Below, piece by piece: positions 6,937 to 37,021 of a stretch of 64,000 nucleotides of DNA (its first letter is position 1; every line of letters begins with the position of its first letter). The DNA is from Candidatus Omnitrophota bacterium. Its GTDB lineage: Bacteria > Omnitrophota > Gorgyraeia > Zapsychrales > Fredricksoniimonadaceae. The DNA lies in NCBI GenBank assembly GCA_015232565.1, contig JADFZK010000010.1, positions 987 through 64,986 on the forward strand, given 5' to 3'. The position numbers and the translations under genes are program-made. The notes beneath the pieces are model-generated. The model did not search any database, had not been told where the DNA came from, and was given only the letters and a program-made list of their open reading frames with translations.

Positions 6937-7290
6937 TCAAATTTTAACTTGATAAACATAGGCCGCAACTGTTTCCACACAACCCAGGCAAGACAATTTA
7001 TGGCCGGCCCGGATCTCGCGGCATTTAGTGGAACCGGCCCGTTCCCGCAGGGCGCTTTCGCATTCTTTTATAATGGAAGACGGCGCTTTATCCAACAGAA
7101 ACCGGGCGGCGTAAAGAGAGCCGCATTCGCCCTCCGGCGCCCGGCCGCCGCCGTGCCCGGCAAAACGCGCGACCGTATCATCACTATAACTGAATTTGTC
7201 CTTGAAAGCATTTATTATAGTTTGCGCACAGTTCAGTTTGGCGTGGCCGTCTTTACCTGCATAATGGGCCCGGGCTTTTTCTATAGACAT
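6937..7290 (-). CDS. C_GCAxxG_C_C family putative redox-active protein
   Basis: The motifs NCAQTI, GGG...GECGSL, GSTKCREI and SCLGCV match the C_GCAxxG_C_C signature layout. Confidence 0.7.
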   Translation of the reverse strand: MSIEKARAHYAGKDGHAKLNCAQTIINAFKDKFSYSDDTVARFAGHGGGRAPEGECGSLYAARFLLDKAPSSIIKECESALRERAGSTKCREIRAGHKLSCLGCVETVAAYVYQVKI

Positions 7291-7302
7291 AAAGTTACCT
7301 CC

Positions 7303-7620
7303 TTATATTCTTTGGCTGCCGGCCCTTTCGCGCGCCAGCAAACGTGGGCAGTTTATCTTGATAGTTTTGCCCTTCACCAGCGCTTCGGCGATCTTGGCAT
7401 GCGCGCGCGCCACAGTATTCCCGAAAGTCTGGCGGGAAACCTTCATGCGCCGGGCGGCGTCGGCCTGATACAAGCCTTCCAGGTCGGCCAGGCGTACCGC
7501 TTCCAGCTCGTCCACCTCCAGCGCCACCTCTTGCCTAACGTCATCCGCGACGCCTTGCGGCTGGAAATAGAAAGCCTTAAGGTCCAAACAGATCTTGCGC
7601 TCCTTGCGCGGCCGGGGCAT
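7303..7620 (-). CDS. UPF0251/DUF134 DNA-binding protein
   Basis: The N-terminus MPRPRKERKI...YFQPQG and a C-terminal sigma-70 region-4-like HTH (VSRQTFGNTVARAHAKIAEAL) fit the family. The start is refined to MPRPRK, preceded by GGAGGGGAAG. Confidence 0.75.
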   Translation of the reverse strand: MPRPRKERKICLDLKAFYFQPQGVADDVRQEVALEVDELEAVRLADLEGLYQADAARRMKVSRQTFGNTVARAHAKIAEALVKGKTIKINCPRLLARERAGSQRI

Positions 7621-7650
7621 TATCTTCCCCTCCGCACAATTAATTGCCAC

Positions 7651-9427: not shown

Positions 9428-10336
9428 TCAGGTGAGGGTATAAGGATTGCCGGTATTTAGCGCCGCCGGAATAAACGGATTCGCCCCCGCCCCGCCCTGG
9501 CCGGCATTAGGCGTACCGCTATTCAGCAAGGCCAGCGCCCGATTGATCGGCGTGGCATAACCGATACCCATATAGTTGTTCTCGGTAGCGCCGGCGGAGT
9601 TATTCACCCCCACCACCTCGCCCTTGATATTCACCAGCGGGCCGCCGCACGAACCCGGATAGATATTGATGTTCGTACGGAACTTGTTACTAAACTGCAG
9701 TCCAGCTACCGTGTAGGAATAATTATTATCGATGATCATGCCCGTCGCCATCAGGTTGCCGGTGCCGAAAGCATTGCCGGTGGCAAACACAATATCGCCG
9801 CGGTCCACCAGGTCGGAATTGCCAAATATGCCGACAGACTGAAAGTCCACATTGTTGGTTACCTGCAAGACCACCAGGTCACTGGCCGCGTCCCGCCGGC
9901 AAACTGCCACCGGATAACGCACCGGTTGAGCCCCGCTGGTCGCCACGAACAAATCACCGCCGCCCTGCACAATGTGCGCATTGGTCAAAACTATTTGCCG
10001 GGAAATGATCACGCCCGAACCCAGCAACTGCGGCTGGGCCTGGCCGGCCAGGTTAACATAAATGCTGACGGTGATGCGGTTCATGACATCCGCCACCTGG
10101 TTATAGGTATTCTCCAAAGCCCCGGTATTCATACCCGGCGCGGCTCCGGCCATGATCTGCCCGCCGCCCTGAGCCGGCGCAATAGCCACCGGTCCCGGTA
10201 CGGCTGTAACGGCCTGCCCCTGGGGGCCCGCCGCCGCGGCCTTGGGCCTGGACGAACAAGCCACCACCGCCAAAAGCACCAGCACACCCCCCGCCCAAAG
10301 CCATAATATTTTTTGTGAATCGTCTTTCTTCATCAC
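9428..10336 (-). CDS. Membrane-anchored trypsin-like (S1C/HtrA-type, no PDZ) protease paralog with Cys at the nucleophile position
   Basis: His is at LTNAHIV and Asp at ASDLVVLQ. At the position aligning with the canonical nucleophile motif GNSGGPL the sequence reads PGSCGGPLVN. The paralog at 15966..16892 has GSSGGPL there. Confidence 0.7.
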   Translation of the reverse strand: MMKKDDSQKILWLWAGGVLVLLAVVACSSRPKAAAAGPQGQAVTAVPGPVAIAPAQGGGQIMAGAAPGMNTGALENTYNQVADVMNRITVSIYVNLAGQAQPQLLGSGVIISRQIVLTNAHIVQGGGDLFVATSGAQPVRYPVAVCRRDAASDLVVLQVTNNVDFQSVGIFGNSDLVDRGDIVFATGNAFGTGNLMATGMIIDNNYSYTVAGLQFSNKFRTNINIYPGSCGGPLVNIKGEVVGVNNSAGATENNYMGIGYATPINRALALLNSGTPNAGQGGAGANPFIPAALNTGNPYTLT

Positions 10337-10373: not shown

Positions 10374-12296
10374 TTAGACCCTAACCAGCCTTCGGCCCTT
10401 GCCTTCGCGGACAGTGACCCCCTGCTCATCAAAATACTCCAGTATTGGCACCGCCTGGTTACGGGAAAAACCGGTAACCTGCCGGAACGCTCCCAACTCC
10501 ACCACCGGACATTTCTCAAACAAAACTTTAAGCTTTTTAAGGCCGGCATTCACCTCGGCCGCCGACAGCAAATAATGATCCGCCGCCACCACCAGCCCCT
10601 CCTCGATCAACAGCCGCACCAGGAACTGCATTTCCTGGTCGGTAGCATTCAACCGGGCCTGCAGGGGCGCATACGGCGCCACGCCGTGTTCCGCGCCCAG
10701 CACCGCTTTTAAGATCAGCTCCTTCTGCACCTCCTGCCGGGCGCTCAACTCCGGGCTGTAGCCTCTTAAAGCCAGAACATTCTTCTCGACCACAATACGT
10801 TCACTATCCAGAAAAAGCGCCCGGATCCCGTCCCAACAAGCCGGATCCAGCCCCAGTGCGGAGCAGGCCTGCGCGCCGGGCATACCGCGGGCCGCCTTAT
10901 TGTCTTTATGATAACGGGCCAGTACGGCCGCCAGTTTCTCCTCCAGTTCCGCCACCCGATCAGCGGCAATCCACTGTGCCGGACCGACCGGCCGAAGAAC
11001 CCCGGCTTCCACCTTGGCAGCGACAATAGCCCGGCTGTTAACATTACCCGCCAACCCGGGCAGCACGCTGGAGTCAATGATCGTAAAACAACCCGCCAAA
11101 AGCTCGCTTTGAAACGGATCCTGCCCGGCGGCCGCCTGCCGCGCCCGTTCCAGCCTTTCCGGCGTCAAATAGGCCTTCTTCCGGCGCGGATCCACATTAC
11201 AGCTCAGGATCACCCCGCCGGCAATAGTCGCCGCCGGAGAAAGTGTGCGCAAAAGGAACCGGTCGCCCGCCGCCACCACCATCGGCTCGCCGGACTCCAC
11301 CTGCATGAACCCCTCCTCGCCGGGGCCCAGCGTATTGCGCCCCGTCAACAAACCCCACACCACCCGGGTAAACGTGCCGCAACAAAAACGCATTTCCTGC
11401 CGACGCTTGATGACCGCCGATTCATGCACATTGCGGACCGCCAGCACCAGCGCACCGGTCTCCTTAAAAACACCCGGTGCCGCCAGCGTCATACCGCGCT
11501 TGATGGCCGACGCCTTTATATCCCGGATAGTAATGGCCGAACAGGTATGCGCCTCGGCCTCCCGGGCATCATAACCATATTTCTGCACCGCCCGGCAAGC
11601 CGTGGCCACCGGGCCGGGAAAAAGTTCCAGCTTATCCCCCACCGCACAGCGCCCCGACAAAGGTATCCCGGTAACCACCGTTCCCACGCCCGGCGGAGAA
11701 AAAACCCGCTCGATATCCATGCGGAACGCCCGTTCGGCCGCCGGCGCCCGGGACACCACGCCCACCAGGCGCTCGATCTCCCGGCGCACATCCTCCAGGC
11801 CCTCGCCCGTCCGGTTGGACAGCAAAACCACCCGGGCCGGGCCAAAACCGTTGGCCGCCAGAAAAGCCGCCACCGCTTCTTTAACTTCCTGCTGCCGGGC
11901 AGACGTTACCAGGTCGATCTTGGTGATCACCGCCATTACTTGCGGCGCACCCAGCAAACTGACGATCTTTAAATGCTCGACCGTTTGCGGCATAATGCCG
12001 TCGTCGGCAGCCACTACCAGCACCAGCACATCAATAGCCGACGCCCCGGCCACCATGTTCTTGATAAAATCTTCATGCCCCGGCACATCAATAATACCCA
12101 CCATCCGCTCGCCCGAAAGCCGGCAGGGCGCAAAGCCCAGATCGATGCTCATCCCCCGCTGTTTTTCCTCGGGCAGGCAGTCGGTATCGCAACCGGTCAA
12201 CAATTTAACCAGCGCGGTCTTGCCGTGATCCACATGCCCGGCAGTGCCCACCATTACCGGCACGACCCTTAATTCCTGTTGACCCGGCACGCTCAT
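10374..12296 (-). CDS. selB: Selenocysteine-specific elongation factor SelB
   Basis: The GTP-binding motifs GTAGHVDHGKT and DVPGHEDF are present. A long C-terminal extension with winged-helix-like repeats follows. The gene is adjacent to selA and tRNA-Sec. Confidence 0.9.
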   Translation of the reverse strand: MSVPGQQELRVVPVMVGTAGHVDHGKTALVKLLTGCDTDCLPEEKQRGMSIDLGFAPCRLSGERMVGIIDVPGHEDFIKNMVAGASAIDVLVLVVAADDGIMPQTVEHLKIVSLLGAPQVMAVITKIDLVTSARQQEVKEAVAAFLAANGFGPARVVLLSNRTGEGLEDVRREIERLVGVVSRAPAAERAFRMDIERVFSPPGVGTVVTGIPLSGRCAVGDKLELFPGPVATACRAVQKYGYDAREAEAHTCSAITIRDIKASAIKRGMTLAAPGVFKETGALVLAVRNVHESAVIKRRQEMRFCCGTFTRVVWGLLTGRNTLGPGEEGFMQVESGEPMVVAAGDRFLLRTLSPAATIAGGVILSCNVDPRRKKAYLTPERLERARQAAAGQDPFQSELLAGCFTIIDSSVLPGLAGNVNSRAIVAAKVEAGVLRPVGPAQWIAADRVAELEEKLAAVLARYHKDNKAARGMPGAQACSALGLDPACWDGIRALFLDSERIVVEKNVLALRGYSPELSARQEVQKELILKAVLGAEHGVAPYAPLQARLNATDQEMQFLVRLLIEEGLVVAADHYLLSAAEVNAGLKKLKVLFEKCPVVELGAFRQVTGFSRNQAVPILEYFDEQGVTVREGKGRRLVRV

Positions 12297-13687
12297 TACA
12301 GCTCTCCCCTGGCCAGGCACTGCAATTGCCGGGCCACCACCAGCTCTTCGCCCGCAAACAAGGTGCGCATATCAAAATATAAAGCGTTAGCCTTGACCCG
12401 GCAGAACACCGAAGGCAAGCCGGCCCTGAGATATTCCGCCGCCGCTTCCACTCCCGGCAAGCCGGCTTCGGCCTGAGCAAAACTGACCCGCACCACCCGG
12501 GTGGGTATGCCCTCATCGGGCAAGGACCCGCTGCCAACATACGCCACATCATCTTCCACCACCGCCGTAACCCCGGGCTCGGCGGCCAGGGCCCGCACAA
12601 GGACCGCCGCCCGCGCATCCAGCTCCGGGCGGGACACACTTAACATCTGGTAGAAAGGCAAAGCCTCGCGGTAAGTGTCATTTACAAAATGCAATAAGGT
12701 GGCCTCCAGCGCCGCCAGGGTAAGCTTGCACACCCGGAACATCCGCGCAAAAGGATTCCGGCGTATGCGCTCGATATATTCTTTTTTACCGCAAATGATC
12801 CCCGACTGGGGGCCGCAGATCAGTTTGTCGCCGCTAAAACACACCACTGCCGCTCCGGCGGATAACGAGGCCCGCACCAGCGGCTCATCGGCCAGGCCAA
12901 AGCCCGACAGCGGCACCAGCGACCCACTGCCGATATCGTCTATTACCGGCAGGCCCTTCTGCCGCCCCAGCCCGCACAGGCCGGCGATATCCGGCACGCC
13001 GGCAAAACCGCGCACCCGGAAATTGGAAGTATGCACATGGATCAAGGCGCCGGTATTCTCGTTGATCGCCCGCTCATAATCATGCAAATGCGTGCGGTTG
13101 GTGGTGCCGACCTCGCGCATGCTGACCTGGCTTTGGGCCATCACATCCGGCATGCGGAATTCTCCGCCGATCTCAATAAGCTGGCCGCGGCTGATGATCA
13201 CCTGCCGGCCTGCCGCCAGGGTATTAAGCACCAGCATGGTAGCCGCCGCGTTATTGTTCACCACCGTTGCGGCCTCACAACCGGTCAGCTCGACCAGCAA
13301 CCGCTCCACTTTTTCCTCACGCAAAGAACGTTTCCCGGAAGCCAGCCCGGTCTGCAGGACCGAATAGGCCCCCATCCCGCCCAGCGCCGCCACCGCCTCC
13401 CGGCATAATGGAGAACGCCCCAGCCCGGTGTGCAGTAAAACGCCGGCCGCATTTACCGCCGCACGCCCCTCGGGAGCCGCCAGGCGCGTGAGCCGCTTGC
13501 GCAAACCGGCGGCCAGTTCACCATCCCCGGGAATACCGGCCAACGCCCCCGCATTTATCCGGGCGCGCAGGCCATCGAGCAAAGCGCGCAATTCCAGCTT
13601 GACCGCGCCATTGCCAAATTCCCGGCCCAGCGCGCGCACCGCATCGAGTTCCAATAATGCGGACACTGCCGGGATCTGCTTTAATAA
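12296..13687 (-). CDS. selA: L-seryl-tRNA(Sec) selenium transferase SelA (start uncertain, probably non-ATG)
   Basis: The motifs VVNNNAAA, LIEIGGEFRMPDVM, EVGTTNRTH and SFSGDKL are SelA signatures, including the PLP-lysine region. The first 41 codons of the listed ORF (12296..13810) overlap tRNA-Sec, so the real start must lie at or below 13687. A GTG at 13669 is one candidate. Confidence 0.85.
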   Translation of the reverse strand, partial: LLKQIPAVSALLELDAVRALGREFGNGAVKLELRALLDGLRARINAGALAGIPGDGELAAGLRKRLTRLAAPEGRAAVNAAGVLLHTGLGRSPLCREAVAALGGMGAYSVLQTGLASGKRSLREEKVERLLVELTGCEAATVVNNNAAATMLVLNTLAAGRQVIISRGQLIEIGGEFRMPDVMAQSQVSMREVGTTNRTHLHDYERAINENTGALIHVHTSNFRVRGFAGVPDIAGLCGLGRQKGLPVIDDIGSGSLVPLSGFGLADEPLVRASLSAGAAVVCFSGDKLICGPQSGIICGKKEYIERIRRNPFARMFRVCKLTLAALEATLLHFVNDTYREALPFYQMLSVSRPELDARAAVLVRALAAEPGVTAVVEDDVAYVGSGSLPDEGIPTRVVRVSFAQAEAGLPGVEAAAEYLRAGLPSVFCRVKANALYFDMRTLFAGEELVVARQLQCLARGEL

Positions 13688-13782
13688 TGGCGGAGGTGTA
13701 TGGGAATCGAACCCACCAGGGGCTTTATCAGCCCCGCGACAGTTTTGAAGACTGCGAGCATCACCAGACACTGAACACCTCC
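13688..13782 (-). tRNA. selC: tRNA-Sec (selenocysteine, anticodon UCA)
   Basis: The minus-strand sequence is GGAGGTGT...CTTCAAAAC...GGTTCGATTCC...ACACCTCCGCCA. It has an 8-bp acceptor stem, a TCA anticodon, a long variable arm, a G discriminator and CCA, and is 95 nt long. Confidence 0.85.
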
Positions 13783-13922
13783 ACAATGTGCCAATTCTCC
13801 GGTCCCACAATGGCCGGGAGAAGTTAATTTATACCAACTGAATAATTTGTTCCGTTACGCTTATACCGCACTGCTGATACCCCGGCTTGAGCGCCATTCC
13901 CGATGGCGCGCAAATTGGTCGT

Positions 13923-14252
13923 TCACCTGCCGTTGATCCGGTTTATCAGGTCCCCCGGCTGGATCCCGGCCCGTGCGGCCGCCGAACCCGGCTCTACCGA
14001 CACCACCGTACCCTTGCCCTCCAGGACCACACCCATCGGTAAAGTAAGCGTATTGGACCGCAAGGCCACCATCTGCATGGCTGAGCCCGCCGTGCTATTT
14101 ACTGGCGTGACCGGTATACCGGCCAACGGCCTTTGCGCCGCCGGCAGGCCAGCCGGACGCTGGGACACCACCCCGAACACCAGCAACAAAACCACCAGAA
14201 AAATGATCGCGTTCACTCTATGCGCTTCCAGGTAATCGAATATTTCTTTCAT
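13923..14252 (-). CDS. Small membrane-anchored PDZ-domain protein
   Basis: The likely start is MKEIFDYL. It has one TM segment (AIIFLVVLLLVFGVV) and a PDZ-like C-terminus (GVVLEGKGTVVSVEPGSAAARAGIQPGDLINRING). Confidence 0.55.
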   Translation of the reverse strand: MKEIFDYLEAHRVNAIIFLVVLLLVFGVVSQRPAGLPAAQRPLAGIPVTPVNSTAGSAMQMVALRSNTLTLPMGVVLEGKGTVVSVEPGSAAARAGIQPGDLINRINGR

Positions 14253-14292
14253 AGGATCTTTCTGGCCGCCCAGGCCGCTGATTAAATTATCC

Positions 14293-14763
14293 TCACTTAA
14301 CCGTGAACGTCTTGGAGAAACCCGTCGGCCCGCCGGACTCGGTGAGCTGTCCGCTGTTATATTTGGTAAGCGCCTCCTGCACATTATTGGCCAGGCCGCC
14401 GAACACCTTGACCCCCCGGCGCATCAAATGCTCAAAAGGCTCGGGCCCCACATTCTTGGCGATCACCACCCCCACCCGCTCGCGCACCAGCAGGCGGGCC
14501 ACATGCAAACCCGCCTCATGGGTGGTATTTACAAAACGATTGGCCACAAAGATCGCCGTATTATGCTTGAAATCATAGACCGCAAAATAGGGCGCCCGCG
14601 AGAACACCGGCGATACCGGCGACAACAGCGAAGGCTCATCGGCCGGCACGGCCACCACATAAGGGAACACATGCGGCCGGAACGACAAAAGCATTACCGG
14701 GCTGAACAGCAGAAAAACGATCGGGATCAGAAAGTGATACCAGCTCAGTTTGATCGGCCCCAT
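14293..14763 (-). CDS. Membrane-anchored NifX/NafY-like (dinitrogenase FeMo-cofactor-binding domain, PF02579-type) protein
   Basis: One TM segment is followed by YVVAVPADEPSLLSPVSPVFSRAPYFAVYD...GVVIAKNVGPEPFEHLMRRGVKVF. This matches the HFGRAP.F.IYD...GIG..A...L...GI.V pattern. The start is refined to MGPIKL at 14763, giving a TAATG overlap with the upstream gene. Confidence 0.6.
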   Translation of the reverse strand: MGPIKLSWYHFLIPIVFLLFSPVMLLSFRPHVFPYVVAVPADEPSLLSPVSPVFSRAPYFAVYDFKHNTAIFVANRFVNTTHEAGLHVARLLVRERVGVVIAKNVGPEPFEHLMRRGVKVFGGLANNVQEALTKYNSGQLTESGGPTGFSKTFTVK

Positions 14764-15650
14764 TATTTCCCCCCGCGTGTGGTCTTTTTTAACGCCAGCT
14801 CTCTTTGCGGCAGGGCGCTGACCAGTTTTATGTGCTTGCAATCCGTACACTCCAGGCAACGGATACAATCCTTCATGTTCGGATCCTCATATACCTTCAT
14901 GCCTTCGGGGCATTTCTTCTGGCAAAGGTTGCACTCGGTACACCCGTCATCAACCTTGAGTTTCATAATGCTGACTTTATTGAAGAACGACCAGAACAGC
15001 CCCATCGGGCAAATGTACTGGCAGAACGGGCGCTTGGAAACCACGAACAGCCACAGCACCACTCCCAATATCGCCAGCTTCAGCGCGAACAACCAGCCCA
15101 CCGAACCCGGCTCAATTGTCGGCGCGCCAGTAGTAGGATTGATCGGATTCCATAATATCCACGGAATACCGGCAGTCACCGTGCCTACCGGGCACAATTT
15201 GGAGAACCAGTGCTCGGTAGTCAGGAACGGCAGGATAATTATGAAAATGATCAACATGATCCACGGCAAAACGCCCCAGTAATACGGTATGTCGATCTTG
15301 ACCGACTTGATCTTGTAAACCATTTCCTGGAACAGCCCCACCGGGCAAACCCAGCCGCAAACCATGCGGCCCACCAGTAATCCCACGATCATCAAATGCC
15401 CCACCAGAAAAAACGGAAACTGGTGGATAGCCGAATAGTGTTGCATGACCCCCAACGGGCAGGCGAAAGCCGCCGTGGGGCAAGAGTGGCAATACAGGAA
15501 CGGCAGGCACACGCTCTTGAACAGCCCCGTATAGATCTGGTTCTGGTAGATCACCGCCACGTAAACATTGGTAATGATCAGCCCGAAGAACTGGGTGGCC
15601 CGCCTAAAAGGATGTAACAGATTCATAATACGCCCATTAATGGTTAACAA
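14763..15650 (-). CDS. NapH/MauN-type polyferredoxin membrane protein (4Fe-4S)
   Basis: It has multiple TM helices with CxxxCP motifs (CHSCP, CGWVCPVG, CPVG, CPMG). The C-terminus carries two Cx2Cx2Cx3CP ferredoxin motifs (CTECNLCQKKCP and CIRCLECTDC). Confidence 0.7.
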   Translation of the reverse strand: MLTINGRIMNLLHPFRRATQFFGLIITNVYVAVIYQNQIYTGLFKSVCLPFLYCHSCPTAAFACPLGVMQHYSAIHQFPFFLVGHLMIVGLLVGRMVCGWVCPVGLFQEMVYKIKSVKIDIPYYWGVLPWIMLIIFIIILPFLTTEHWFSKLCPVGTVTAGIPWILWNPINPTTGAPTIEPGSVGWLFALKLAILGVVLWLFVVSKRPFCQYICPMGLFWSFFNKVSIMKLKVDDGCTECNLCQKKCPEGMKVYEDPNMKDCIRCLECTDCKHIKLVSALPQRELALKKTTRGGK

Positions 15651-15965: not shown

Positions 15966-16892
15966 TCAGGCCACCGGCAAGGCGAACTGTTTATCGGCCA
16001 GCGCACCTCCCGGATACTGGCCGCCAGCCAGCACCGCGCTATCGGCCGCCGGCACACCGCTCTTTTGCAAAAGCGCCAGCGCCCGATTGATCGGCATGGC
16101 AAAACTTATGCCTGTGAACTTGCCCTGCGGGTTATACACCGCCGTATTAATACCCACGATATCGCCGTTGATGTTCGCCAGAGGCCCGCCGCTGGACCCG
16201 GGATAAGTGTAGGACTCCGTACGGATCATATTGTGATAGGTCATCCCGCCCACCGAGAACGATTGCGTACGGTCGCACACCACGCCGGTGGTAAAAACAT
16301 TCCCCGAACCAAACGCATTACCCATGGCAAAGACCAGGTCGCCGGCGCTCACGTTATCGGAATTCCCCAGGTCGGCCGACGGCAGAACCGTAAGCGTATC
16401 GATCTTCATCAAAGCCAGGTCATTGGCCTTATCCGACAGCACCATACTGGCCGCATAAGTCATTTCGGTATTAGTCGGAGTATAAACCGTCACCTGGATG
16501 TCCGTGGCACCGCCCACCACATGATAATTGGTAAGCATATACTGGTCGGCGATGATCACGCCCGAGCCGCTCACCTGCTCCGGCACCCCGTTGATGACCT
16601 TGCCGCCGGTGATGCGGGCGCAAATATGGTTCATATTATGCGCGATGTTGTTATACACCTTCTCCAGCGAAGCCGCCGACAGCGTGGGCGCGCCGCTGGT
16701 GTAAACCGGGTGCTTATAACCGATCCAGTGTTCGGCCATCTCGATCTGGAACATATGCCAGGCCATATTAAAATTGGCCACTATCGCCACCGGAACAATT
16801 ATGCCCGTCAAAAAAATTATCCAGACCGACAATTGCACATTGTCGCTAATATTAAACCAAGCCTTATTCGGTTGCTCTTTAGGGGATATCAT
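15966..16892 (-). CDS. Membrane-anchored trypsin-like serine protease (HtrA-type catalytic domain, no PDZ)
   Basis: The real start is MISPKEQ... at 16892, which makes an ATGA overlap with the upstream ATPase gene. His is at LTNYHVV, Asp at ANDLALMK, and the nucleophile motif reads GSSGGPLAN. Confidence 0.8.
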   Translation of the reverse strand: MISPKEQPNKAWFNISDNVQLSVWIIFLTGIIVPVAIVANFNMAWHMFQIEMAEHWIGYKHPVYTSGAPTLSAASLEKVYNNIAHNMNHICARITGGKVINGVPEQVSGSGVIIADQYMLTNYHVVGGATDIQVTVYTPTNTEMTYAASMVLSDKANDLALMKIDTLTVLPSADLGNSDNVSAGDLVFAMGNAFGSGNVFTTGVVCDRTQSFSVGGMTYHNMIRTESYTYPGSSGGPLANINGDIVGINTAVYNPQGKFTGISFAMPINRALALLQKSGVPAADSAVLAGGQYPGGALADKQFALPVA

Positions 16893-17716
16893 TGGACCGC
16901 CTCCAGGAATTTGCCTACCTCGGCCGAGGCGCCCGCCGTGCGCCGCGCCTGCCCGCAGGCGATCAGCGCGGCACCCCGCGCCGCGGTCATCTGCGGCGCT
17001 TCCGCAATGATCACGTTCCGGTCGAGCGCGTCGGAAAGCGCCCGCGCCATGCCCGGGATCAAGGCCACCCCTCCGGTAAAGACCACCGGGCCGTTTACCC
17101 GGCCGGCCAGCATGGCCACAATGCGCCGGGCCACCGAATGCTGTACCCCGGCCGCCAGATTGGCCGGCGCCTCTTCCGCGGCCAGCAGGCCCACGATCTC
17201 GGTCTCGGCAAAAACCGCGCACATACTGCTGATGATCGACGGACACGCCGCTTTTTCGGCCATTGCTCCCAGATCCTTAAGTCCAGTTTCCAGCCGCACC
17301 GCCACGATCTCCAGGAACCGCCCGGTTCCAGCCGCACACCGGTCATTCATCACAAAATCATAAACCAGTCCCCGTTCGTCGAGCCGGATCACTTTACTGT
17401 CCTGCCCGCCGATATCTATAATGGTGCGCGCGTTCGGCACCTGCGCTATCACGCCATAAGCCTGGCAGGTAATTTCGGTCACCGCGGCATCCGCCCATTC
17501 GACGGCACTGCGCCCGTAGCCAGTAGCGATCACCCGGGAAACATCCTCGCGCCCCAGGCCCGCCTGGCCCAGAACCTGTTTAAAAAGATCATGCGCCAGG
17601 GCCGCCTGCCGCACCCCCTGGTCGCAGATCCCGGAGGCGATCAACTGCCCAAGACCCTCATCGATGACCACCACCTTGATAGTGCGCGAACCCACATCCA
17701 CTCCGGCATATAACAT
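16889..17716 (-). CDS. BadF/BadG/BcrA/BcrD-type ATPase (HgdC-like activator of 2-hydroxyacyl-CoA dehydratase-type enzymes)
   Basis: The motifs GVDVGSRTIK, TGYGR, IIDIGGQDSKVI, FVMNDRCAAGTGRFLE, CAVFAETEIV and FTGGVAL give near-collinear motif conservation with HgdC. Confidence 0.85.
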   Translation of the reverse strand: MLYAGVDVGSRTIKVVVIDEGLGQLIASGICDQGVRQAALAHDLFKQVLGQAGLGREDVSRVIATGYGRSAVEWADAAVTEITCQAYGVIAQVPNARTIIDIGGQDSKVIRLDERGLVYDFVMNDRCAAGTGRFLEIVAVRLETGLKDLGAMAEKAACPSIISSMCAVFAETEIVGLLAAEEAPANLAAGVQHSVARRIVAMLAGRVNGPVVFTGGVALIPGMARALSDALDRNVIIAEAPQMTAARGAALIACGQARRTAGASAEVGKFLEAVQ

Positions 17717-17719
17717 AAA

Positions 17720-19138
17720 CTACCGCTCTTTCCTTTGGTTCCTGACAGTTTCTACCAATGCTTCCAGCCGCGTCCGCAAAGTCCCCTGCAAAGGGTCACA
17801 GACCGAGGGCACTTCTATCTCCAGCACCGGACAATTCCCGGCCGCCGTCACTATTTCCCGAATAACTTCGCCCTCCAGGGCGCAGTGACTGGCCCCGGGG
17901 ATACGGGAAATTATCAAAGCCTCCGAACCAAAAGCGCGCATATCGCGCTGAATGCGTTGCGCCCGTTCCTGGGCCGTACCCGCCATCGGATCGGCCAGCG
18001 CCACGCGCGCCAGGGCTTCCAAAGGCGGAATATCATCCGGTATCTGGTCCAGGGCATGGGTAAACAAATAATCCGTCCCGCAGATCCGCCCGCCGCACTC
18101 CTCCAGCAGGTTCATAGCTTTCAGGTCGGCCACCGGGTTAACCCAGAACACCCGCACTGCGTCCCGGCCATGAAACCCCACCCCCCGCCCGGTCCGCTCC
18201 CGGACCGTGGCCAGTAACTCCTCCAACACCACCAGCGTTTCGGCGCGATCGGAACAATAATGCAAGGCCAGCATCTCGGCCACCAGCAACTCCAGGGCCG
18301 GCAAAGGCGCCAGCCCGGCGGTAAATACTGCTCGGCGCAATTCCGCCAGGCAAGACCGCACTTTATTGGCCTGATGGATACTGGCCGCCAGCATCCGGTC
18401 GGTCAGCTTGACATTGCACTGCATGGTAAAACCTGTTATTACGCGCGCCAGCTCGGCCTGGACAAAAGCCACCTGCCCGGCACCGGCCCGCGCACCGCCC
18501 GGCAATAACGCCGCTTTCTCACCCGGCTCAGGTTCCCGCCGTTGAGGCAGTTCCCACCACAATACCGGATGCCCCAGGCCTTCCACCCGCTGGGCGATCG
18601 CCGAAAAATCATCACAAGTCGCGCCCACACTGCAAACCAGCAGGTCCGGCCGCGGAAAATGCTCCCCGGAAACAAAAGCCCCCAGCATGGCGCGAACCGG
18701 ACAAAACGACTCGTCCACTCCCAGGCGGTCAGCGATCGCCAGCAAACCGGCATTGTCTTCCAGCAAACACGGCAGCCACCACGCTCCGTCCGGATAAAAC
18801 GCCACCAGATCCGGATAAGCGCAGGCAATGACCGGCACCGTACCCAGGTCTTTCATGGCCCCGATCAGTGTTTTACCGGCCAACCGGGCCTGGCGCAAAC
18901 GATCTTCCTCGGTCAGCAAAAAGTTCCACAGTTTAAGCGCCGCAAAAGAATTGTCGAACTGCAGCCGGGCCAGGCGCGTATTCCCGCTCCGCACATGCCG
19001 CCCCAGCAAACCGCCATAACCGGCGTCCCGGGGTTCCAATGACCCCGCGCGCTCGTAAGCCTCGTCCCATTCCTCCAGCGTGATCTGCCGTGGAACCGCT
19101 ACCGGGCCCAGCGCCCGCTCTGCCAGGCAAAGGCTCAC
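17720..19138 (-). CDS. 2-hydroxyacyl-CoA dehydratase / DCCP-like subunit (HGD-D family)
   Basis: Cysteine ligand-type motifs FCPVRAMLG, VGATCDDF and GASHCALE are present. The gene is coupled to the activator ATPase gene. Confidence 0.65.
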   Translation of the reverse strand: MSLCLAERALGPVAVPRQITLEEWDEAYERAGSLEPRDAGYGGLLGRHVRSGNTRLARLQFDNSFAALKLWNFLLTEEDRLRQARLAGKTLIGAMKDLGTVPVIACAYPDLVAFYPDGAWWLPCLLEDNAGLLAIADRLGVDESFCPVRAMLGAFVSGEHFPRPDLLVCSVGATCDDFSAIAQRVEGLGHPVLWWELPQRREPEPGEKAALLPGGARAGAGQVAFVQAELARVITGFTMQCNVKLTDRMLAASIHQANKVRSCLAELRRAVFTAGLAPLPALELLVAEMLALHYCSDRAETLVVLEELLATVRERTGRGVGFHGRDAVRVFWVNPVADLKAMNLLEECGGRICGTDYLFTHALDQIPDDIPPLEALARVALADPMAGTAQERAQRIQRDMRAFGSEALIISRIPGASHCALEGEVIREIVTAAGNCPVLEIEVPSVCDPLQGTLRTRLEALVETVRNQRKER

Positions 19139-20202
19139 CGTAAACCCTCCATAAAAGCCCCGATACGATTTCGGACACGCTCGTTCATTCTTCCGCCGTC
19201 CAACTCAATATCCAGCAACGGCACCTCCAGCGCCGCGCGAAAACGCTCGGCTTCTGCATGCCATTTATCGCACCACAAGTGGCGCACAAAAACCACCCCG
19301 CGCACTTGCCGGGACCGGACCGCTTTTTCCATCCAGGCGAAGATCCCGCTGTTCGGCCGCTGAAAAACATCGGGGATCGCGCGAAAATACGCTTCCGTCA
19401 ACACGCCGGTCGGGTCCTCCTTGATGCGCCGCAAATCAAGCCGCGCCGGAAAAGCCCGCTCTCCCGACTCGGTGCCGTTAAAGACCACTTCGGCGCCATG
19501 ATCGGCAAAAACATCAAACAAGTCGAACTGGCGCGCGGTTAAAGGCCCGCCGATAAAACCCACCGGGACCGAGCCCGCATACGGCCGCCCGCAAGCCAGG
19601 CCGGCGAAATTCTCGTCCCGCACCTTGCCGTTCTCGCCAAAAAACTGCAATTCACGCGCAAAATCACCAGCCGACAGATCGTTCTGGCGCGCCAACACCA
19701 TCCGGCGGTTAATATCGTATTCCAACAGTATCGACACCAGGCGCTCCGGCTCCACCCGTTTACCGCCCAGCGTTACACAAAAACGGCCCAGCCGCTCCAG
19801 CTCGGCGGCATATAACGCGCTAACCTCGGGCGTGCCGCAGGTGGACGGCACATTCATCAGAAAACACGGCACCTTAGTACGCAAATTTATCAGATCGGCT
19901 CCCCGGCGCATCTGGTCGCAAGTAGTTACCAGCACTACTCCCAGGACCTGGGGATCGCTTACGGCCTCGTTAATGAACCCGCGCATATATGCGCAAACCC
20001 CGGACTCCACACTCACCGGCGGCGCACCCGAGCCGCCACAAAAAGCACTGCCGCCGGAAGTCATCCGCCACGGCACCAGGCCATGCGCCGCTATCCATTC
20101 CGCCGGCACAAAAGGACTGGTAAAGATGATCTTTTTTCCCCGCCGCAAAGCCGTACCCGGACTATCCATGGTTGCACCCCTGGCGGCCTTTAACAGTCTC
20201 AA
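19135..20202 (-). CDS. HGD-D family subunit (smaller paralog)
   Basis: The motifs GVCAYMRGF, VTTCDQMRR and HLWCDKW are present. It overlaps both neighbours. Confidence 0.6.
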   Translation of the reverse strand: MRLLKAARGATMDSPGTALRRGKKIIFTSPFVPAEWIAAHGLVPWRMTSGGSAFCGGSGAPPVSVESGVCAYMRGFINEAVSDPQVLGVVLVTTCDQMRRGADLINLRTKVPCFLMNVPSTCGTPEVSALYAAELERLGRFCVTLGGKRVEPERLVSILLEYDINRRMVLARQNDLSAGDFARELQFFGENGKVRDENFAGLACGRPYAGSVPVGFIGGPLTARQFDLFDVFADHGAEVVFNGTESGERAFPARLDLRRIKEDPTGVLTEAYFRAIPDVFQRPNSGIFAWMEKAVRSRQVRGVVFVRHLWCDKWHAEAERFRAALEVPLLDIELDGGRMNERVRNRIGAFMEGLR

Positions 20203-21361
20203 ACAACGATTGCACCCGCAAACTCAACCGGGCGTTATCGGAGGGCGAATAATCTGTCTCGATCTTCAGGTAAGGCATTCTCAGCTTGTCCTCGGCCAGC
20301 GCCTTAACGGCCTGGGCTTCTATATCGTAAGTCAGGCAGGTCCGCCAGACCACTTCGATCACACACTCCGCCCGGTATTCCCCGGCCAGAGCCTCCAGCC
20401 GCTCCAACCGCCGGTCGTTAGGCGTCATCACCGAACAGGGCAAATGAAAATATTTCGCCGCTAGCGCCCGTAACAGGTCCGGGGCATCAATGTCAATATC
20501 TTCCAGCACCGGCTTCTCGCCGGAACAGCTCTCCTGGCACACCACCAGCCCGCCATTATCCTCGATCAGGCCCAGCACGCGCTCGGCGCCGTGCGGCAAA
20601 GGCACGCCCGTCAGCAAAACCCGCACGCGCTTACCGGCCGCCGGCTTTATTTCCCGTCCGGCCAACCAGGCCGCGGCTTTGGAATACTGCTCGTGATCTT
20701 GCGGCAAACCGGCGATCAGGCTTCTCATCCCCAGCAATTCACGCCCGGTCAACGGCGGGCAAGCGCTTTGCATCAACCCGGCCAGCTCCCGCTTAAGGCG
20801 GCGGTCGCGATTCATTACCACGACGGCTTCTTTAAGCTTCTCATCCGTGATCTCAACCGCAAAACGTGCTTCCAGTTCTTTCCGCAACTTTCTCAGCTCG
20901 GCCACCCAATGCTCAAAAGCATCGGCATCGCGGGATTTTTGCGGCAATTCCAGCACATACATCGGATGCCGCTGGCCCAGCAATTCATACATTTTCTTTT
21001 TTCCGTCACAAGTGGTCTCCGCCACCACCAGACTGGCCATTTCCAGGAACGGATTGGCTTTTTCCAGGCTGTACCCAAAAGTCGACTTGATCAACGGACA
21101 AAGATTGGCCGGCAAAACCCGCTCCGCCGGCTCTACCATTTCCGCCGACCCGCCGCATAAGCACACCGGCACGCCACCCGCGGCCATGATCAGCTCCCGG
21201 GGGGTGAATTCACACATGATCCCCACGACCGGCGCCCCCTGGCTTTTACGCAATCGGGCATACGCCAGGCAATTCTGCACTTGGCCGGCAAAATGCTCCA
21301 GCGGACCGCCGTCCTGCGCCCGCGCCACCACCTGATCTTTTGTTCCGCAACATCCGGCCAT
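20162..21361 (-). CDS. HGD-D family subunit
   Basis: The motifs VGIMCEFTPRELIMAAG, ETTCDGKKKMYELL, CQESCSG and WRTCLTYD are present. Confidence 0.65.
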   Translation of the reverse strand: MAGCCGTKDQVVARAQDGGPLEHFAGQVQNCLAYARLRKSQGAPVVGIMCEFTPRELIMAAGGVPVCLCGGSAEMVEPAERVLPANLCPLIKSTFGYSLEKANPFLEMASLVVAETTCDGKKKMYELLGQRHPMYVLELPQKSRDADAFEHWVAELRKLRKELEARFAVEITDEKLKEAVVVMNRDRRLKRELAGLMQSACPPLTGRELLGMRSLIAGLPQDHEQYSKAAAWLAGREIKPAAGKRVRVLLTGVPLPHGAERVLGLIEDNGGLVVCQESCSGEKPVLEDIDIDAPDLLRALAAKYFHLPCSVMTPNDRRLERLEALAGEYRAECVIEVVWRTCLTYDIEAQAVKALAEDKLRMPYLKIETDYSPSDNARLSLRVQSLFETVKGRQGCNHG

Positions 21362-21390: not shown

Positions 21391-22983
21391 TTAACTTTTA
21401 GCAGCCTTGTCCCGGCAGGCCTGAAGGCACTCGCCATAGAACATTTTGACCGGCGCCCCGCCCACCAGGACCGCGCACCACATAACCTCGTCGAGCTCGG
21501 CGGGCGTAATGCCCATGGCCAAAGCTTTAGCGTAATGCAAATTAAAACAACCATGACAGCGCTGGAGCAAAACCAGCGCGAACAAGATCAATTCTTTGGC
21601 CCTTTTATCTATCACCCCGCTCGCCGTTACACTGGCCACCAGGTCGCCAAATGCCTTGGCCGATCCATTAGCCGTCGAAGCTAACCCTGCCGAAGCCGCG
21701 CCTTCCGCCATGCCCGTACAGCAGCACGCCGGCTCTTTATGCCCATCCTGTTTTTTATCCCCGCTCATTGCGCCCTCGCTTTTAGTCATCACCAGTTCAA
21801 TAGCCCCGCACCGGGCCGCCACCACTTCGCCTATCACCGCCGCGCCGGCACCGCGCGCTTTAAGTTCGCTCACCAACTCGCCCAAACGCGCCAGCGGTAC
21901 AGCTATCATCAGGCCGCCCGAAGTCTCGGCGCCCAATCCCAAATATTTATATTCATTGCCCACATCGGCGTCAGCGCATAATTCTGCGCCCACGAACTCC
22001 GCGTTACGCTCGCTGGCCCCGGATATAACCCCGGCCCGTAACAGGTCCAGCGCTCCGGAAAAGGCCGGCAAAGCATCCGCGTAGACCCGGGCCGCGGTGC
22101 CGGAATGACGCATCATGCGCAATAAATGCCCGAACAACCCAAACCCGGTTATGTCGGTGCAAGCCGAAACGCCCACCTTGACCATTGCCGCGGCGGCTTC
22201 CTTATTAAGAAGCATCATGGACTGTTCAGCCTCCAGTAACCCGGCCGCATGCTCCCGCCCTAACTGGCGCGCAAAAGTCAGGACCCCGGTGCCCAGCGGC
22301 TTGGTAAGCACCAGCACATCGCCCGGCCGGGCCGTTTCCAGGGCAACCGCCGCACCGTTCAAGATCTCCCCGGTGATGGCGAACCCCAGCTTGACCTCGG
22401 TATCTTTAATGCTATGCCCGCCCAGCAAAGCGCAGCCGGCGCTGGCCAGTGTTTCCATAGCGCCTTTTAACATCAGGAACATGATCTCTTTATCGTGAGT
22501 TTCTACCGGGAACGCCAGAATGCTCAGCGCAGTACGCGGCACCGCGCCCATGGCATAAATATCAGAAAGGCAATTGGCGGCGCAGATCTTGCCGAAGGTT
22601 AACGGGTCATCTACGCAAGGAGTGAAAACATCCACCGTCTGGACCAGCGTGGTGCCGGCATTGATCCGGTAAACACCGGCGTCATCCGCGGCGGCCAGGC
22701 CGGAAAGTACAGCGGGATCATCGACCGCCGGAAGGCGCGCCAGCAAGCCCTCCAGGTCGGCCGCCGGGATCTTGGAGGCGCAACCCGCGCTTGCGCTCAT
22801 GGCGGTCAGCTTGACACTGGCAATATCCACCGGAGTCGGCCGCTCGCCGGCACAAGGGCACAGGTCACATTCCAACAAGCTCGCGCACGGACAGGCCTGC
22901 TGGACATCACAAATGCAATGCCCCAGCGCCCTGGAACGCCCCATAACCCGGGCGCGAATCGTGTGTTTATTGTTTTCTGCCAT
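21391..22983 (-). CDS. selD: Selenide, water dikinase (SelD, Cys type) with Cys-rich N-terminal extension and C-terminal AhpD/CMD-like domain
   Basis: The SelD core includes MSASAGCASKIP, which aligns with the active-site GCGCK, and a PurM-like fold. The N-terminal ~55 aa are Cys-rich (HCICD..CPC..CDLCPC). The C-terminal ~110 aa carry an AhpD-like CxxC-type motif (LQRCHGCFNLHYAKALAMG). Confidence 0.8.
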   Translation of the reverse strand: MAENNKHTIRARVMGRSRALGHCICDVQQACPCASLLECDLCPCAGERPTPVDIASVKLTAMSASAGCASKIPAADLEGLLARLPAVDDPAVLSGLAAADDAGVYRINAGTTLVQTVDVFTPCVDDPLTFGKICAANCLSDIYAMGAVPRTALSILAFPVETHDKEIMFLMLKGAMETLASAGCALLGGHSIKDTEVKLGFAITGEILNGAAVALETARPGDVLVLTKPLGTGVLTFARQLGREHAAGLLEAEQSMMLLNKEAAAAMVKVGVSACTDITGFGLFGHLLRMMRHSGTAARVYADALPAFSGALDLLRAGVISGASERNAEFVGAELCADADVGNEYKYLGLGAETSGGLMIAVPLARLGELVSELKARGAGAAVIGEVVAARCGAIELVMTKSEGAMSGDKKQDGHKEPACCCTGMAEGAASAGLASTANGSAKAFGDLVASVTASGVIDKRAKELILFALVLLQRCHGCFNLHYAKALAMGITPAELDEVMWCAVLVGGAPVKMFYGECLQACRDKAAKS

Positions 22984-23123: not shown

Positions 23124-23708
23124 ATGAAGACTTACAACCAGACCACGGCGGCTTGTTATATTTACACTTTCAAGAAGGGCCTGCTCTCTGCTTTGGCCCA
23201 TGACCTGAAGATCCAAGTTTTTAAGTTTGAGATAAAAACCACTGGCAGTACGAAGGATACCGCGGACTGGAAAAACATTGAGGCCAGGTTTGATGCCGCC
23301 AGCCTACGCACTGTTTGCGCCATGAAGGACGGCGCGCGCTCTCCGGCAAAACTGTCGGATCAAGACAAGCGCGATATTGACCGGAACATCATTAATGCGG
23401 TTTTACACTCGCAGGAATTTCCCGGCATCACCTTTCGCTCCAGCAGTATTACCCGGCGAAAATCCGGCGTGGTTATCAAAGGCGCACTGACCATTTGCGG
23501 CCAAACCCGCACCATTACTCTCCCGGTCCAGGAATTAAATACCTGTTATCGCTCCGAACTGGTCATCGACCAGCGCGACTTTGGCATCCAGCCCTTCAGC
23601 GCCTTAATGGGAGCAATGCAAATTAAGCCGGAGATCATCGTGCGGATCGAGCTGGGTAAGGTTACGGCGAAGGCACCGCTATCGGAGCATTGTCCGACAG
23701 ACCCATAA
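23124..23708 (+). CDS. YceI-like periplasmic/lipid-binding domain protein
   Basis: ITFRSSSI...GVVIKGALTICGQTRTITLPV resembles the conserved core of the YceI family. The 3' end overlaps the convergent giant gene by 47 nt. Confidence 0.5.
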   Translation: MKTYNQTTAACYIYTFKKGLLSALAHDLKIQVFKFEIKTTGSTKDTADWKNIEARFDAASLRTVCAMKDGARSPAKLSDQDKRDIDRNIINAVLHSQEFPGITFRSSSITRRKSGVVIKGALTICGQTRTITLPVQELNTCYRSELVIDQRDFGIQPFSALMGAMQIKPEIIVRIELGKVTAKAPLSEHCPTDP

Positions 23709-28557: not shown

Positions 28558-29478
28558 TTATTTCAACTTACCGCGGATATGCACCAGGCATTTGCGGCAT
28601 TTGTCTTTTTTGTCGGCGGCGCGGCCCTGCATCTGGCCGTCGCACCAGGTATGATCGATCTCCCAGCACTTGGCCCCATGATTGGGAAAGGAAGGGCACT
28701 GCACCTGGCGTTCGGGCGGGCAATTAAGGATCTCCCAGCAGTTGGATTTCATGGTCGTCGCGCAATAAACCTTCAGATCGCCGGTGTGTTTGCGCATGTC
28801 CCCGATCAGGCGGTCCCAGGCTTCCTTGCTTTCCAGATCCTTGGGTAAAGGCCGCCGCTCGATCCGTTCCAGGAACATTTCCACCTTGCGGCAATGATCC
28901 CGCAGGGCATCGAGCAAATGTTTGGTGCGCACATTTACTTCATCATCAGGCATGGCATCGCGCCATACCTCAAAGCCGCCCAGCACACGGCCTTTCTTGT
29001 CGATCAACGGCCCCGCCGAAACCACTATCGCATGCTCACGGCCCATGCGGTCGTTCACTTTCACCCTCTTGCCCACCACCGACTTACGCGTCTTCATGGC
29101 CTGCTTGATAGCGCAATGCCGCTCACAAAGGTCGCTGTTAAAGATCTGCGCGCAATTTACCTTGCCCACTGCATCGTTGAGCTTTAATCCGGTGAATTCC
29201 AGGCAAGCCGGGTTCATGAACTGGATCTTCATGTCCTTGTCGACCACAAAAAACGGGTAGGTGGAAGCGCGCAGGATGCTAACGGCAAATGCGGCCATAT
29301 CCTCAAATTCACCGAAAGCCTTGGTTTTGGATGACAGGAAATCCAGGAAATCGTTCTGGGCTCCGTCTTCTTTAGGCTCGACGACCTTTTTACTGCCATG
29401 CGAGGCTTCGGTAGTCTTTAAGGGCTGTTTAAACTCCCTGAGCTCACCCAGGATCCTGGCCATGCGATCGAAATTCAT
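28558..29478 (-). CDS. PAS-domain protein with C-terminal Cys-rich (8 Cys) putative metal/redox-sensing module
   Basis: The PAS-like core is FFVVDKDMKIQFMNPACLEFTGL...GKVNCAQIF. The C-terminus reads NCWEILNCP..(5)C..(8)CWEIDHTWCDG..(12)CRKC. Confidence 0.55.
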   Translation of the reverse strand: MNFDRMARILGELREFKQPLKTTEASHGSKKVVEPKEDGAQNDFLDFLSSKTKAFGEFEDMAAFAVSILRASTYPFFVVDKDMKIQFMNPACLEFTGLKLNDAVGKVNCAQIFNSDLCERHCAIKQAMKTRKSVVGKRVKVNDRMGREHAIVVSAGPLIDKKGRVLGGFEVWRDAMPDDEVNVRTKHLLDALRDHCRKVEMFLERIERRPLPKDLESKEAWDRLIGDMRKHTGDLKVYCATTMKSNCWEILNCPPERQVQCPSFPNHGAKCWEIDHTWCDGQMQGRAADKKDKCRKCLVHIRGKLK

Positions 29479-31273: not shown

Positions 31274-31298
31274 CCGTTCCTTGTATTAAATTGCGCCA

Positions 31299-32042: not shown

Positions 32043-32075
32043 AGAACGATCCCTTTCGTTGCCTTTATGCCGGAT

Positions 32076-32522
32076 TTATATTCCGCCTGGACGGATACCC
32101 ACCCGGCCGTAAACCAGCGTTTGCTTGCCTGCCCGCTCTACCGTAAACGTTACCCGTTCATTGATCCCGGTGGTGCGGATCAAATACTGAGACTGGTCCT
32201 GGCTTATTACGCTCGCGCCATTCCAGCGTTGCAAAACATCGCCCTCGCGCAAACCCGCGCTCTCGGCGGGCGACCCCTTGAAGACCCGCGAGACCAGAAC
32301 GCCATTGGCCGCCATCAGGTCATACTGGCGCCGCACATCGGCCGTCAGCTCGATGGTCTCAACCCCCAGCCACAGCCGGGGGTCCACAGTCCGGAACCGG
32401 AAGTTCCACCCGTCAGCAAAAACCATCACCAGATAAACCACCGCCACCAGCACCAGGCCCGCGGCCATATTGATGATAGTGGCCTTGGAGCCCTCCTTGC
32501 TATACCGCCCGGACTGACTCAT
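32076..32522 (-). CDS. Small membrane-anchored PDZ-domain protein
   Basis: One TM segment is followed by a PDZ domain (GVLVSRVFKGSPAESAGLREGDVLQRWNG). Confidence 0.55.
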   Translation of the reverse strand: MSQSGRYSKEGSKATIINMAAGLVLVAVVYLVMVFADGWNFRFRTVDPRLWLGVETIELTADVRRQYDLMAANGVLVSRVFKGSPAESAGLREGDVLQRWNGASVISQDQSQYLIRTTGINERVTFTVERAGKQTLVYGRVGIRPGGI

Positions 32523-33361: not shown

Positions 33362-33365
33362 AAAC

Positions 33366-33497
33366 CTACTCCAGTCCAATGCAGGCCATACACATGGTCG
33401 CGCCGTTATTTTGCGTTTCCAGCGCATCGTTAGCGCTGTCGCCGATAAGGAATAAAATAAAGACCACAAAAAGAACCAGTATCACTTTTTTACCCAT
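33366..33497 (-). CDS. Small (43 aa) signal-peptide/membrane peptide, not in the ORF track
   Basis: It is preceded by a GGGAGG Shine-Dalgarno site. The translation is MGKKVILVLFVVFILFLIGDSANDALETQNNGATMCMACIGLE. Its stop lies 3 nt before the refined NapH-like start. Confidence 0.3.
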   Translation of the reverse strand: MGKKVILVLFVVFILFLIGDSANDALETQNNGATMCMACIGLE

Positions 33498-37003: not shown

Positions 37004-37021
37004 ACAGACCTCATTACCCGA

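Follow-up and report, generated by a model that had tools for sequence, protein, structure and literature searches.

A predicted cysteine-nucleophile HtrA-like protease and a candidate PDZ selenoprotein encoded in a selenocysteine operon beside an Omnitrophota magnetosome gene cluster

Introduction

Proteases of the HtrA/DegP/DegS type (MEROPS S1C) act outside the cytoplasm, carry an N-terminal anchor or signal, have their catalytic His and Asp within TNxH and DLA(L/V) motifs, and share a GxxGGP L1 loop. They are the closest described relatives of a gene product encoded at 9428..10336 on the minus strand of a 64,000-nucleotide stretch of DNA from Candidatus Omnitrophota bacterium (NCBI GenBank assembly GCA_015232565.1, contig JADFZK010000010.1, positions 987 to 64,986), the whole of which was analyzed and is referred to here as the window. 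The product resembles the HtrA group in fold, in its closest sequence and structure matches, and in each of the features listed above. It differs in that the predicted nucleophile is Cys and in that the PDZ domain is encoded separately rather than in cis, in a protein predicted to contain selenocysteine (Sec).

Within the same superfamily, MamE and MamO control biomineralization in other magnetotactic bacteria. MamO has a degenerate triad, a non-Gly residue at position 193, a di-His metal site, and a C-terminal TauE domain (PMC4794232). The window protein shares its superfamily and its neighborhood of mam genes with MamE, MamO, and MamE-Nter, and its architecture, a transmembrane (TM) segment followed by a protease domain, is that of MamE-Nter. 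To our knowledge, all curated families with a Cys nucleophile on the chymotrypsin fold, the PA(C) families, are viral. With the viral 3C and 3C-like proteases (clan PA), the window protein has in common the chymotrypsin fold, a Cys-His-Asp/Glu triad, and the GxCGG motif, a likeness that holds at the sequence level only; in contrast to them, it is cellular, membrane-anchored, and stand-alone rather than part of a polyprotein.

Selenium has been combined with trypsin and PDZ scaffolds before, in prokaryotic trypsin-like and Trx7/PDZ selenoproteins (PMC2398784, PMC13188914). In the GOS trypsin-like selenoprotein family, Sec stands at a site where COG5640 proteins conserve a Cys that is not the nucleophile. 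In the Trx7/PDZ family, Sec belongs to the CxxU motif of a thioredoxin domain, whereas here it would lie inside the PDZ domain itself (ING-R-U-TTN). The PDZ protein described below is absent from the prokaryotic selenoprotein lists published in the two works cited. A literature search, with subscription journals outside its scope, returned no description of either this protein or a clade of Cys-bearing HtrA proteases.

The initial annotation of the window had singled out 9428..10336 for its PGSCGGPL motif with His and Asp retained, and had proposed either a rare bacterial cysteine-nucleophile enzyme or a pseudo-protease repurposed for metal binding in the manner of MamO. Our main new result is the genomic context of this gene: the Cys protease and a Sec-containing PDZ protein form a pair within a Sec operon, and that operon stands beside a magnetosome gene cluster. 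The conserved Cys and the intact His/Asp pair speak for the first of the two proposals.

Results

The gene at 9428..10336 encodes 302 aa when read from a GTG start and 301 aa from the ATG at 10333, the latter being identical to the NCBI protein (P0001). An N-terminal TM anchor leads into a low-complexity linker rich in Pro, Ala, Gly, and Gln, followed by a trypsin-fold domain and a 26-residue disordered tail that ends in GNPYTLT. Pfam Trypsin_2 (PF13365) matched the product with an E-value of 6e-20 and 72.8 bits (cutoff 27.6), and Pfam Trypsin was matched as well. The best curated-model matches were HtrA/DegP-type families, every one of them far below its cutoff; the Do family of NCBIfam (TIGR02037), for example, scored 112.1 bits against a cutoff of 416.2. 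Neither Pfam nor curated-model scans found a PDZ domain in the polypeptide. A lipoprotein reading was considered and set aside, as the lipobox-like VVAC/IIAC is limited to the window protein and one relative (P0002), with a plain signal anchor in the other members.

In phmmer alignments with solved DegQ and HtrA chains, Cys230 of YPGSCGGPL stands opposite the nucleophile Ser of PGNSGGAL (Ser195 in chymotrypsin numbering). The same alignments place TNAHIV opposite TNNHVV and ASDLVVL opposite TDLAVI, thereby marking His121 (in LTNAHIV) and Asp153 (in SDLVVL) as the catalytic His and Asp. The codons of the three residues lie on the minus strand at 9647..9649 (Cys230, TGC), 9974..9976 (His121), and 9878..9880 (Asp153). 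In place of the classical His-Asp-Ser triad, the product has His121 and Asp153 with Cys230 where the nucleophile would be, as first noticed in the initial annotation. The two paralogs that had been put forward for comparison do carry the canonical GSSGGPL motif, both on the minus strand: YPGSSGGPLAN in 15966..16892, which by Pfam matches and alignment has the same TM and protease architecture, and NRGSSGGPL in the HtrA paralog at 46841..48214.

AlphaFold2, run with the alignment of the family, gave a model with a predicted local distance difference test score of ~90-95 for the protease domain, with a TM helix at residues 4-27 and disorder at 32-64 and 276-301. Searching the Protein Data Bank with Foldseek returned members of the HtrA group as best matches (MucD, HtrA, HTRA1, DegS, and DegP, probability 1.0), with the protease domain of MamO ranked sixth (TM-score of 0.86 on the target). 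The viral matches were HtrA-like proteins and picorna-like polyproteins.

To place the window protein in its family, we aligned the ~45 full-length relatives returned by a search of 5.8 billion protein clusters. Cys occupies the nucleophile column in 39 of the 40 closest homologs, which range from 100% down to 39% identity, and the catalytic His (40 of 40) and Asp are invariant. The equivalents of chymotrypsin Gly193, Gly196, and Pro198 (labelled G227, G230, and P232) are likewise invariant in the family alignment. The family motif reads PG[STVFL]CGGPL; because the residue preceding Cys may be Ser, Thr, Val, Phe, or Leu, the preceding Ser of the window protein, once entertained as an alternative nucleophile, can be discounted. 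Only one His, the catalytic one, and only one Cys, at the nucleophile position, are conserved family-wide. Every Cys-clade locus uses TGC or TGT at this site, both codons occur, and the flanking codons diverge synonymously. The clade is represented in at least 25 independently assembled loci, with intact open reading frames (ORFs) and differences consistent with purifying selection.

A profile search of 1.84 billion representatives placed eight Cys-clade clusters (50% identity) among the 10 best matches, and nearly all remaining matches carried Ser. The Cys clade was monophyletic in 96.5% of 200 bootstraps of a neighbor-joining tree. Together with the groups of two Ser proteins, the window paralog 15966..16892 and P0042, it formed a cluster with 100% bootstrap support and a weaker branching order within. 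One member nested in the Cys clade, P0019, carries Ser, encoded by TCC (one base from TGC), and its gene lies directly downstream of selB. Given this nested member, Ser and Cys appear to be interchangeable at the site, as would be expected of a nucleophile. The best explanation of the pattern would be a single ancestral Ser-to-Cys change, subsequently kept by purifying selection, with P0019 as a reversion to Ser. Since the clade nests beside bacterial Ser paralogs and HtrA structures are its best matches, it probably originated independently within bacterial HtrA rather than by descent from viral polyprotein proteases.

Cys at an HtrA-type nucleophile position also seems to arise sporadically outside this clade. 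P0199 (2419..4140 of L017) is a MamE-like protein with zinc ribbons, a protease domain, a PDZ domain, and the motif NQGNCGGPL, encoded beside MamI and MamQ/LemA genes; found on one contig, it would represent an independent Ser-to-Cys change in another magnetosome protease. A 517-aa ORF on the minus strand of metagenome locus L019, unrelated to the Omnitrophota clade, combines a secreted trypsin_2 domain (Cys-His-Asp, NPGNCGGPLVN) with an FGE-sulfatase (SUMF1-like) domain, and a virus-like fragment (L037) has Cys at the nucleophile position as well. We also looked for Sec at the nucleophile with a degenerate G-x-U-G-G-P-L-V-N-x-x-G-E pattern in which U was encoded by TGA. No match was obtained in JGI metagenome contigs, where GGS-Ser variants or those with other flanks would escape the pattern. 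As a control, the same pattern with TGY retrieved 21 stretches, 15 of which were Cys-clade members; the others included L019, L037, and a MamE-like ORF (L023) discussed below.

A tRNA-Sec/selA/selB operon ends with the Cys protease gene, which the gene for the candidate PDZ selenoprotein always accompanies. All genes of the cluster are on the minus strand and, in the direction of transcription, encode SelD-AhpD, a double-cubane reductase with BcrAD, the Ser paralog, Fer4_5, a NifX-like protein, the PDZ protein, tRNA-Sec, SelA, SelB, and the Cys protease. Nearest to the protease, and ending 37 nt upstream of it, is selB for the Sec-specific elongation factor (10374..12320; Pfam GTP_EFTU and SelB winged-helix domains). 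In other loci the two genes are adjacent or overlap (8 nt in L001, 4 nt in L014), and a scan of the window for a promoter or terminator between them gave nothing above shuffled background. Further upstream are selA for selenocysteine synthase (12296..13680; Pfam SelA, E-value 1e-121; the listed ORF runs into the tRNA and its start is approximate) and selC, the tRNA-Sec gene with anticodon TCA (13688..13782; ARAGORN, and Rfam RF01852 with 75 bits).

Beyond the PDZ gene lie a NifX-like protein with a Nitro_FeMo-Co domain (14293..14868; Pfam), conserved in type A loci (defined below), and a NapH-like membrane ferredoxin (Fer4_5; 14763..15650; Pfam), which with 65-86% identity ranks among the most strongly conserved products of these genes. 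Upstream of the Ser paralog, domain matches identify a BcrAD/BadFG-type ATPase and three HGD-D/double-cubane-cluster reductase subunits (16889..21361). One HGD-D subunit scored 389 bits against the curated "double-cubane-cluster anaerobic reductase" model (cutoff 350), and a role of this reductase in selenium or iron reduction is conceivable. The first gene (21391..22983) encodes a fusion in which selenophosphate synthetase (305 bits with NCBIfam selD, against a cutoff of 125) is followed by a C-terminal AhpD/CMD domain, identified by an AhpD domain match. The N-terminus of this SelD fusion is Cys-rich (CICDVQQACPCASLLECDLCPC), and the protein has ~64% identity in type B loci.

Synteny of selD, double-cubane reductase, BcrAD, Fer4_5, PDZ-Sec, tRNA-Sec, selA, selB, and Cys protease extends over 11 distinct loci. 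These were reached through protein look-ups (P0007, P0016, P0040, P0025, P0013, and P0022) and five GTDB species genomes, namely four Omnitrophota metagenome-assembled genomes and one labelled Deltaproteobacteria. On 15 further loci from JGI metagenome contigs, selB is directly upstream of the Cys protease wherever upstream DNA is present. MBPbin6 and Cal1bin1 are genomes of magnetotactic Omnitrophica (PMC5955933); the Cal1bin1 contig (L012) breaks off within selB and does not reach the Cys gene. Two arrangements were observed. In type A, to which the window belongs, the PDZ gene is upstream of tRNA-Sec, while in type B it directly follows the protease gene, the same order that the protease and PDZ domains have in an ordinary HtrA chain. 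Four type B loci (L005-L007 and L028) lack the Ser paralog and have a short ORF between BcrAD and Fer4_5 instead; it resembles the N-terminal TM region of the Ser paralog (38% identity over 42 aa) and is possibly a remnant.

The gene for the small, TM-anchored PDZ protein occupies 13824..14252 on the minus strand, with an in-frame UGA (TGA at 13923..13925) that we read as Sec on account of its conservation and a coding signature on its far side. The predicted product runs ...GDLINRINGR-U-TTNLRAIG...YSVGIN: the TGA falls in the middle of the domain, and past it the frame stays open (...YSVRYKRNGxNYSV) until a second, genuine stop codon. All 26 loci, which comprise 18 distinct sequences, have TGA at this site. 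Conservation extends over the 31-37 codons past it, and third-position differences dominate among them (95 versus 44/30 in type A, 318 versus 149/58 in type B). In public annotation, the window gene is a 109-aa ORF truncated at the UGA, and the 13 homologs found in databases are all cut off there too, with ...ING[RK] as their last residues. None of these 13 is a Cys form, in a search that needs shared 5-residue words and that distant Cys forms could escape. Sec would sit two residues past a conserved NG, immediately N-terminal to the helix lining the ligand groove of the PDZ domain, and the mature protein contains no conserved Cys.

A SECIS-like (Sec insertion sequence) hairpin, GCGCCAU-CGGGA-AUGGCGC, is predicted at 13891..13909 on the minus strand, beginning 14 nt after the UGA codon (13 intervening nt). 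The hairpin was predicted in six of six sequences folded, with folding-energy z-scores that were not significant. Its G-rich apical loop, CGGG(A/C), is common to both locus types though it is translated as different amino acids. An Rfam scan around the PDZ gene reported tRNA-Sec only and matched no bacterial SECIS family. The Sec-insertion machinery (tRNA-Sec, selA, selB, and selD) is encoded entirely within the same gene cluster. Among curated models, NF041199 matched weakly (21.7 bits, cutoff 300). We propose the protein at 13824..14252 as a candidate selenoprotein family, apparently undescribed, that gene callers truncate. The N-terminal linker of some type A members (L001, L008, L013, P0272, and P0274) contains NCLMYPxxPGCP repeats, which are found neither in the window copy nor in type B.

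The core magnetosome gene cluster of the window spans 28558..48214 on the minus strand. Curated-model and domain matches identified MamB/MamM pairs, magnetochrome proteins, a MamN-like protein, a TauE protein like the MamO C-terminus, MamQ/LemA, a MamA-like TPR protein, MamP, and MamE. It also contains a NapH-like/NifX-like/PDZ trio of its own (32076..34592, minus strand), so the trio beside the Cys protease (13824..15650) constitutes a paralogous module. One further protein of the core cluster, p536 (44571..46181), unites a Nitro_FeMo-Co domain, zinc ribbons, and magnetochrome in a single chain.

The link to magnetosomes suggested by the initial annotation is real, if indirect. The Cys protease gene is ~18 kb from the first recognizable mam gene, and the nearest Ser relatives of the Cys clade are found within or beside magnetosome clusters. 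The Ser relative P0042, for instance, belongs to a magnetosome-like cluster with MamE, MamB/M, and MamN-like genes followed by the Ser protease, a small ORF, Fer4_5, and a NifX-like gene, a cluster in which neither sel genes nor PDZ-Sec was found. Among type B loci, MamE-like or MamP-like genes flank L011, L021, L025, L027, and L028. The Cys-protease/PDZ-Sec module thus appears to be an accessory of the Omnitrophota magnetosome region.

Discussion

We favor, as reasonably probable, a reading in which a membrane-anchored, extracytoplasmic thiol HtrA works with a PDZ-Sec protein acting in trans, the two together serving as an accessory of the magnetosome cluster. The Cys protease would be a thiol endopeptidase on a chymotrypsin fold, as the viral 3C proteases are; activity of this kind is suggested by the shared GxCGG motif, by a catalytic apparatus that is under selection, and by the toleration of a Ser member. 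PDZ-Sec would supply the regulatory or substrate-binding module of a split HtrA. Several features argue for such a split: there is no PDZ domain in cis, type B gene order places the PDZ gene after the protease, and the protease has a hydrophobic C-terminus on a disordered tail. In addition, the protease is co-transcribed with tRNA-Sec, selA, and selB and co-occurs with an exported PDZ-Sec, export signals being present on both proteins. The conserved protease C-termini, GNPY[ST]L[VAT] or ASAQF[VA], are hydrophobic and typical of PDZ ligands, and PDZ-Sec might dock this tail.

Several points weigh against our favored reading. In trypsin and subtilisin, amidase activity is crippled when Ser is exchanged for Cys by engineering; the triad alone is therefore no proof of activity, and an exposed periplasmic thiol is easily oxidized. 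The proposed partnership of the two proteins is based on co-occurrence and gene adjacency; the C-terminal tail carries a different motif in each of the two subclades while the PDZ groove is almost constant, and no PDZ-Sec was found in the short downstream DNA available for three metagenome loci (L031-L033). Finally, since nearly all known carriers of the Cys protease belong to one lineage, Omnitrophota, part of the synteny may reflect common inheritance instead of selection.

A conserved bacterial Ser-to-Cys clade inside HtrA would be a natural experiment on nucleophile exchange in the chymotrypsin fold. The PDZ protein, linked to the Sec machinery and lacking Cys homologs among those retrieved, represents a new candidate family of selenoproteins. 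Considering the role of MamE and MamO elsewhere, the module is also a testable candidate for control of biomineralization in the uncultured, deep-branching Omnitrophota.

The two mature proteins have no conserved chalcogens other than the active-site Cys and the Sec, which makes thiol/selenol redox control of proteolysis plausible, if speculative. In an unlikely alternative, the Cys, held in a protease scaffold, and the Sec, contributed by the PDZ protein, serve as a selenylsulfide couple, and peptide hydrolysis is secondary or lost. The pair would then be an oxidoreductase or redox sensor of the periplasm or magnetosome lumen, with electrons reaching it by way of the NapH-like ferredoxin and the double-cubane reductase. 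Such a role would suit the strict co-occurrence of the protease with the Sec machinery and PDZ-Sec, the conservation of membrane electron-transfer proteins in the same cluster, and the apparent want of Cys homologs of PDZ-Sec, which suggests demanding selenium chemistry. With no conserved Cys in PDZ-Sec and one in the protease, theirs is also the only conserved S/Se pair possible. However, the invariant His, Asp, and oxyanion-hole glycines have no part in a thiol/selenol couple, one clade member has Ser at the Cys site, and no CxxU/UxxC-type motif is present. The geometry of pairing, between a residue on the groove side of the PDZ domain and a buried active site, may count against it too.

That the only conserved S/Se pair sits in a protease/PDZ couple points to redox-controlled proteolysis, and Cys and Sec may form a selenylsulfide or a redox relay that gates the protease. 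In the fullest version, a chalcogen-based two-part HtrA, Sec would form a reversible selenylsulfide with the active-site Cys or reduce its oxidized forms, and redox potential would switch proteolysis in the periplasm or magnetosome lumen; we regard this version as speculative and quite improbable. If true, it would make magnetite biomineralization in Omnitrophota dependent on both redox state and the supply of selenium. It would also provide the first cellular Cys-nucleophile clade of the chymotrypsin fold and, in PDZ-Sec, the first case of a catalytic or regulatory Sec within a PDZ domain.

The second option of the initial annotation, a pseudo-protease, is very unlikely. Such a protein, like Magnetospirillum MamO, would have taken on a new role in binding metal, with Cys as a ligand, or in activating another protease. 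The gene adjoins a magnetosome cluster, MamO does appear in the Foldseek list, and inactive MamE/MamO paralogs arose repeatedly in magnetotactic lineages (PMC4794232). A MamE-like ORF in one metagenome locus (L023) even combines Cys with degenerate His and Asp. Yet a MamO-like function is not supported by the Cys clade itself, because the triad is intact and a second conserved His is absent from the family alignment, leaving no di-His site. The triad and the oxyanion-hole glycines, including the Gly193 equivalent, are invariant or nearly so; in MamO and in the Desulfobacterota MamE-Nter proteins they have been lost. The latter (P0046-P0100, from Desulfamplus and Candidatus Magnetomorum) were recovered in the same search with His changed to Gln or Arg and Ser to Asp or Asn, and this pattern of decay is absent from the Omnitrophota Cys clade. 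Model scores agree: the window protein reached 52 bits with the NCBIfam MamO model (cutoff 800), lacking the TauE domain, and 80.4 bits with the MamE model NF040960 (cutoff 800), lacking both magnetochrome (CXXCH) motifs and PDZ domains. Independently of the window, the degenerate MamE-Nter triads are in line with the convergence on pseudoproteases reported previously (PMC4794232).

Sequencing error and recent decay of an ordinary serine HtrA gene into a pseudogene are excluded: a single base does separate TGC from TCC or AGC, as P0019 with its TCC illustrates, but conservation of Cys across homologs and independent assemblies, the use of both Cys codons, intact ORFs under apparent purifying selection, and a control scan with 21 TGY and 0 TGA matches rule out the base-call error against which the initial annotation had cautioned.

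Additional observations

Downstream of the module, a C_GCAxxG_C_C family protein and a DUF134 protein are encoded at 6937..7650 on the minus strand. The C_GCAxxG_C_C family is counted among selenoproteins in some organisms (PMC9312934), and the copy in the window is a plain ORF. Between the magnetosome cluster and selD, 23662..28419 (minus strand) encodes a 1585-aa protein whose only family match is a faint HEAT repeat. A homolog of this protein, with 53% identity, is encoded downstream of the module in another locus (L008).

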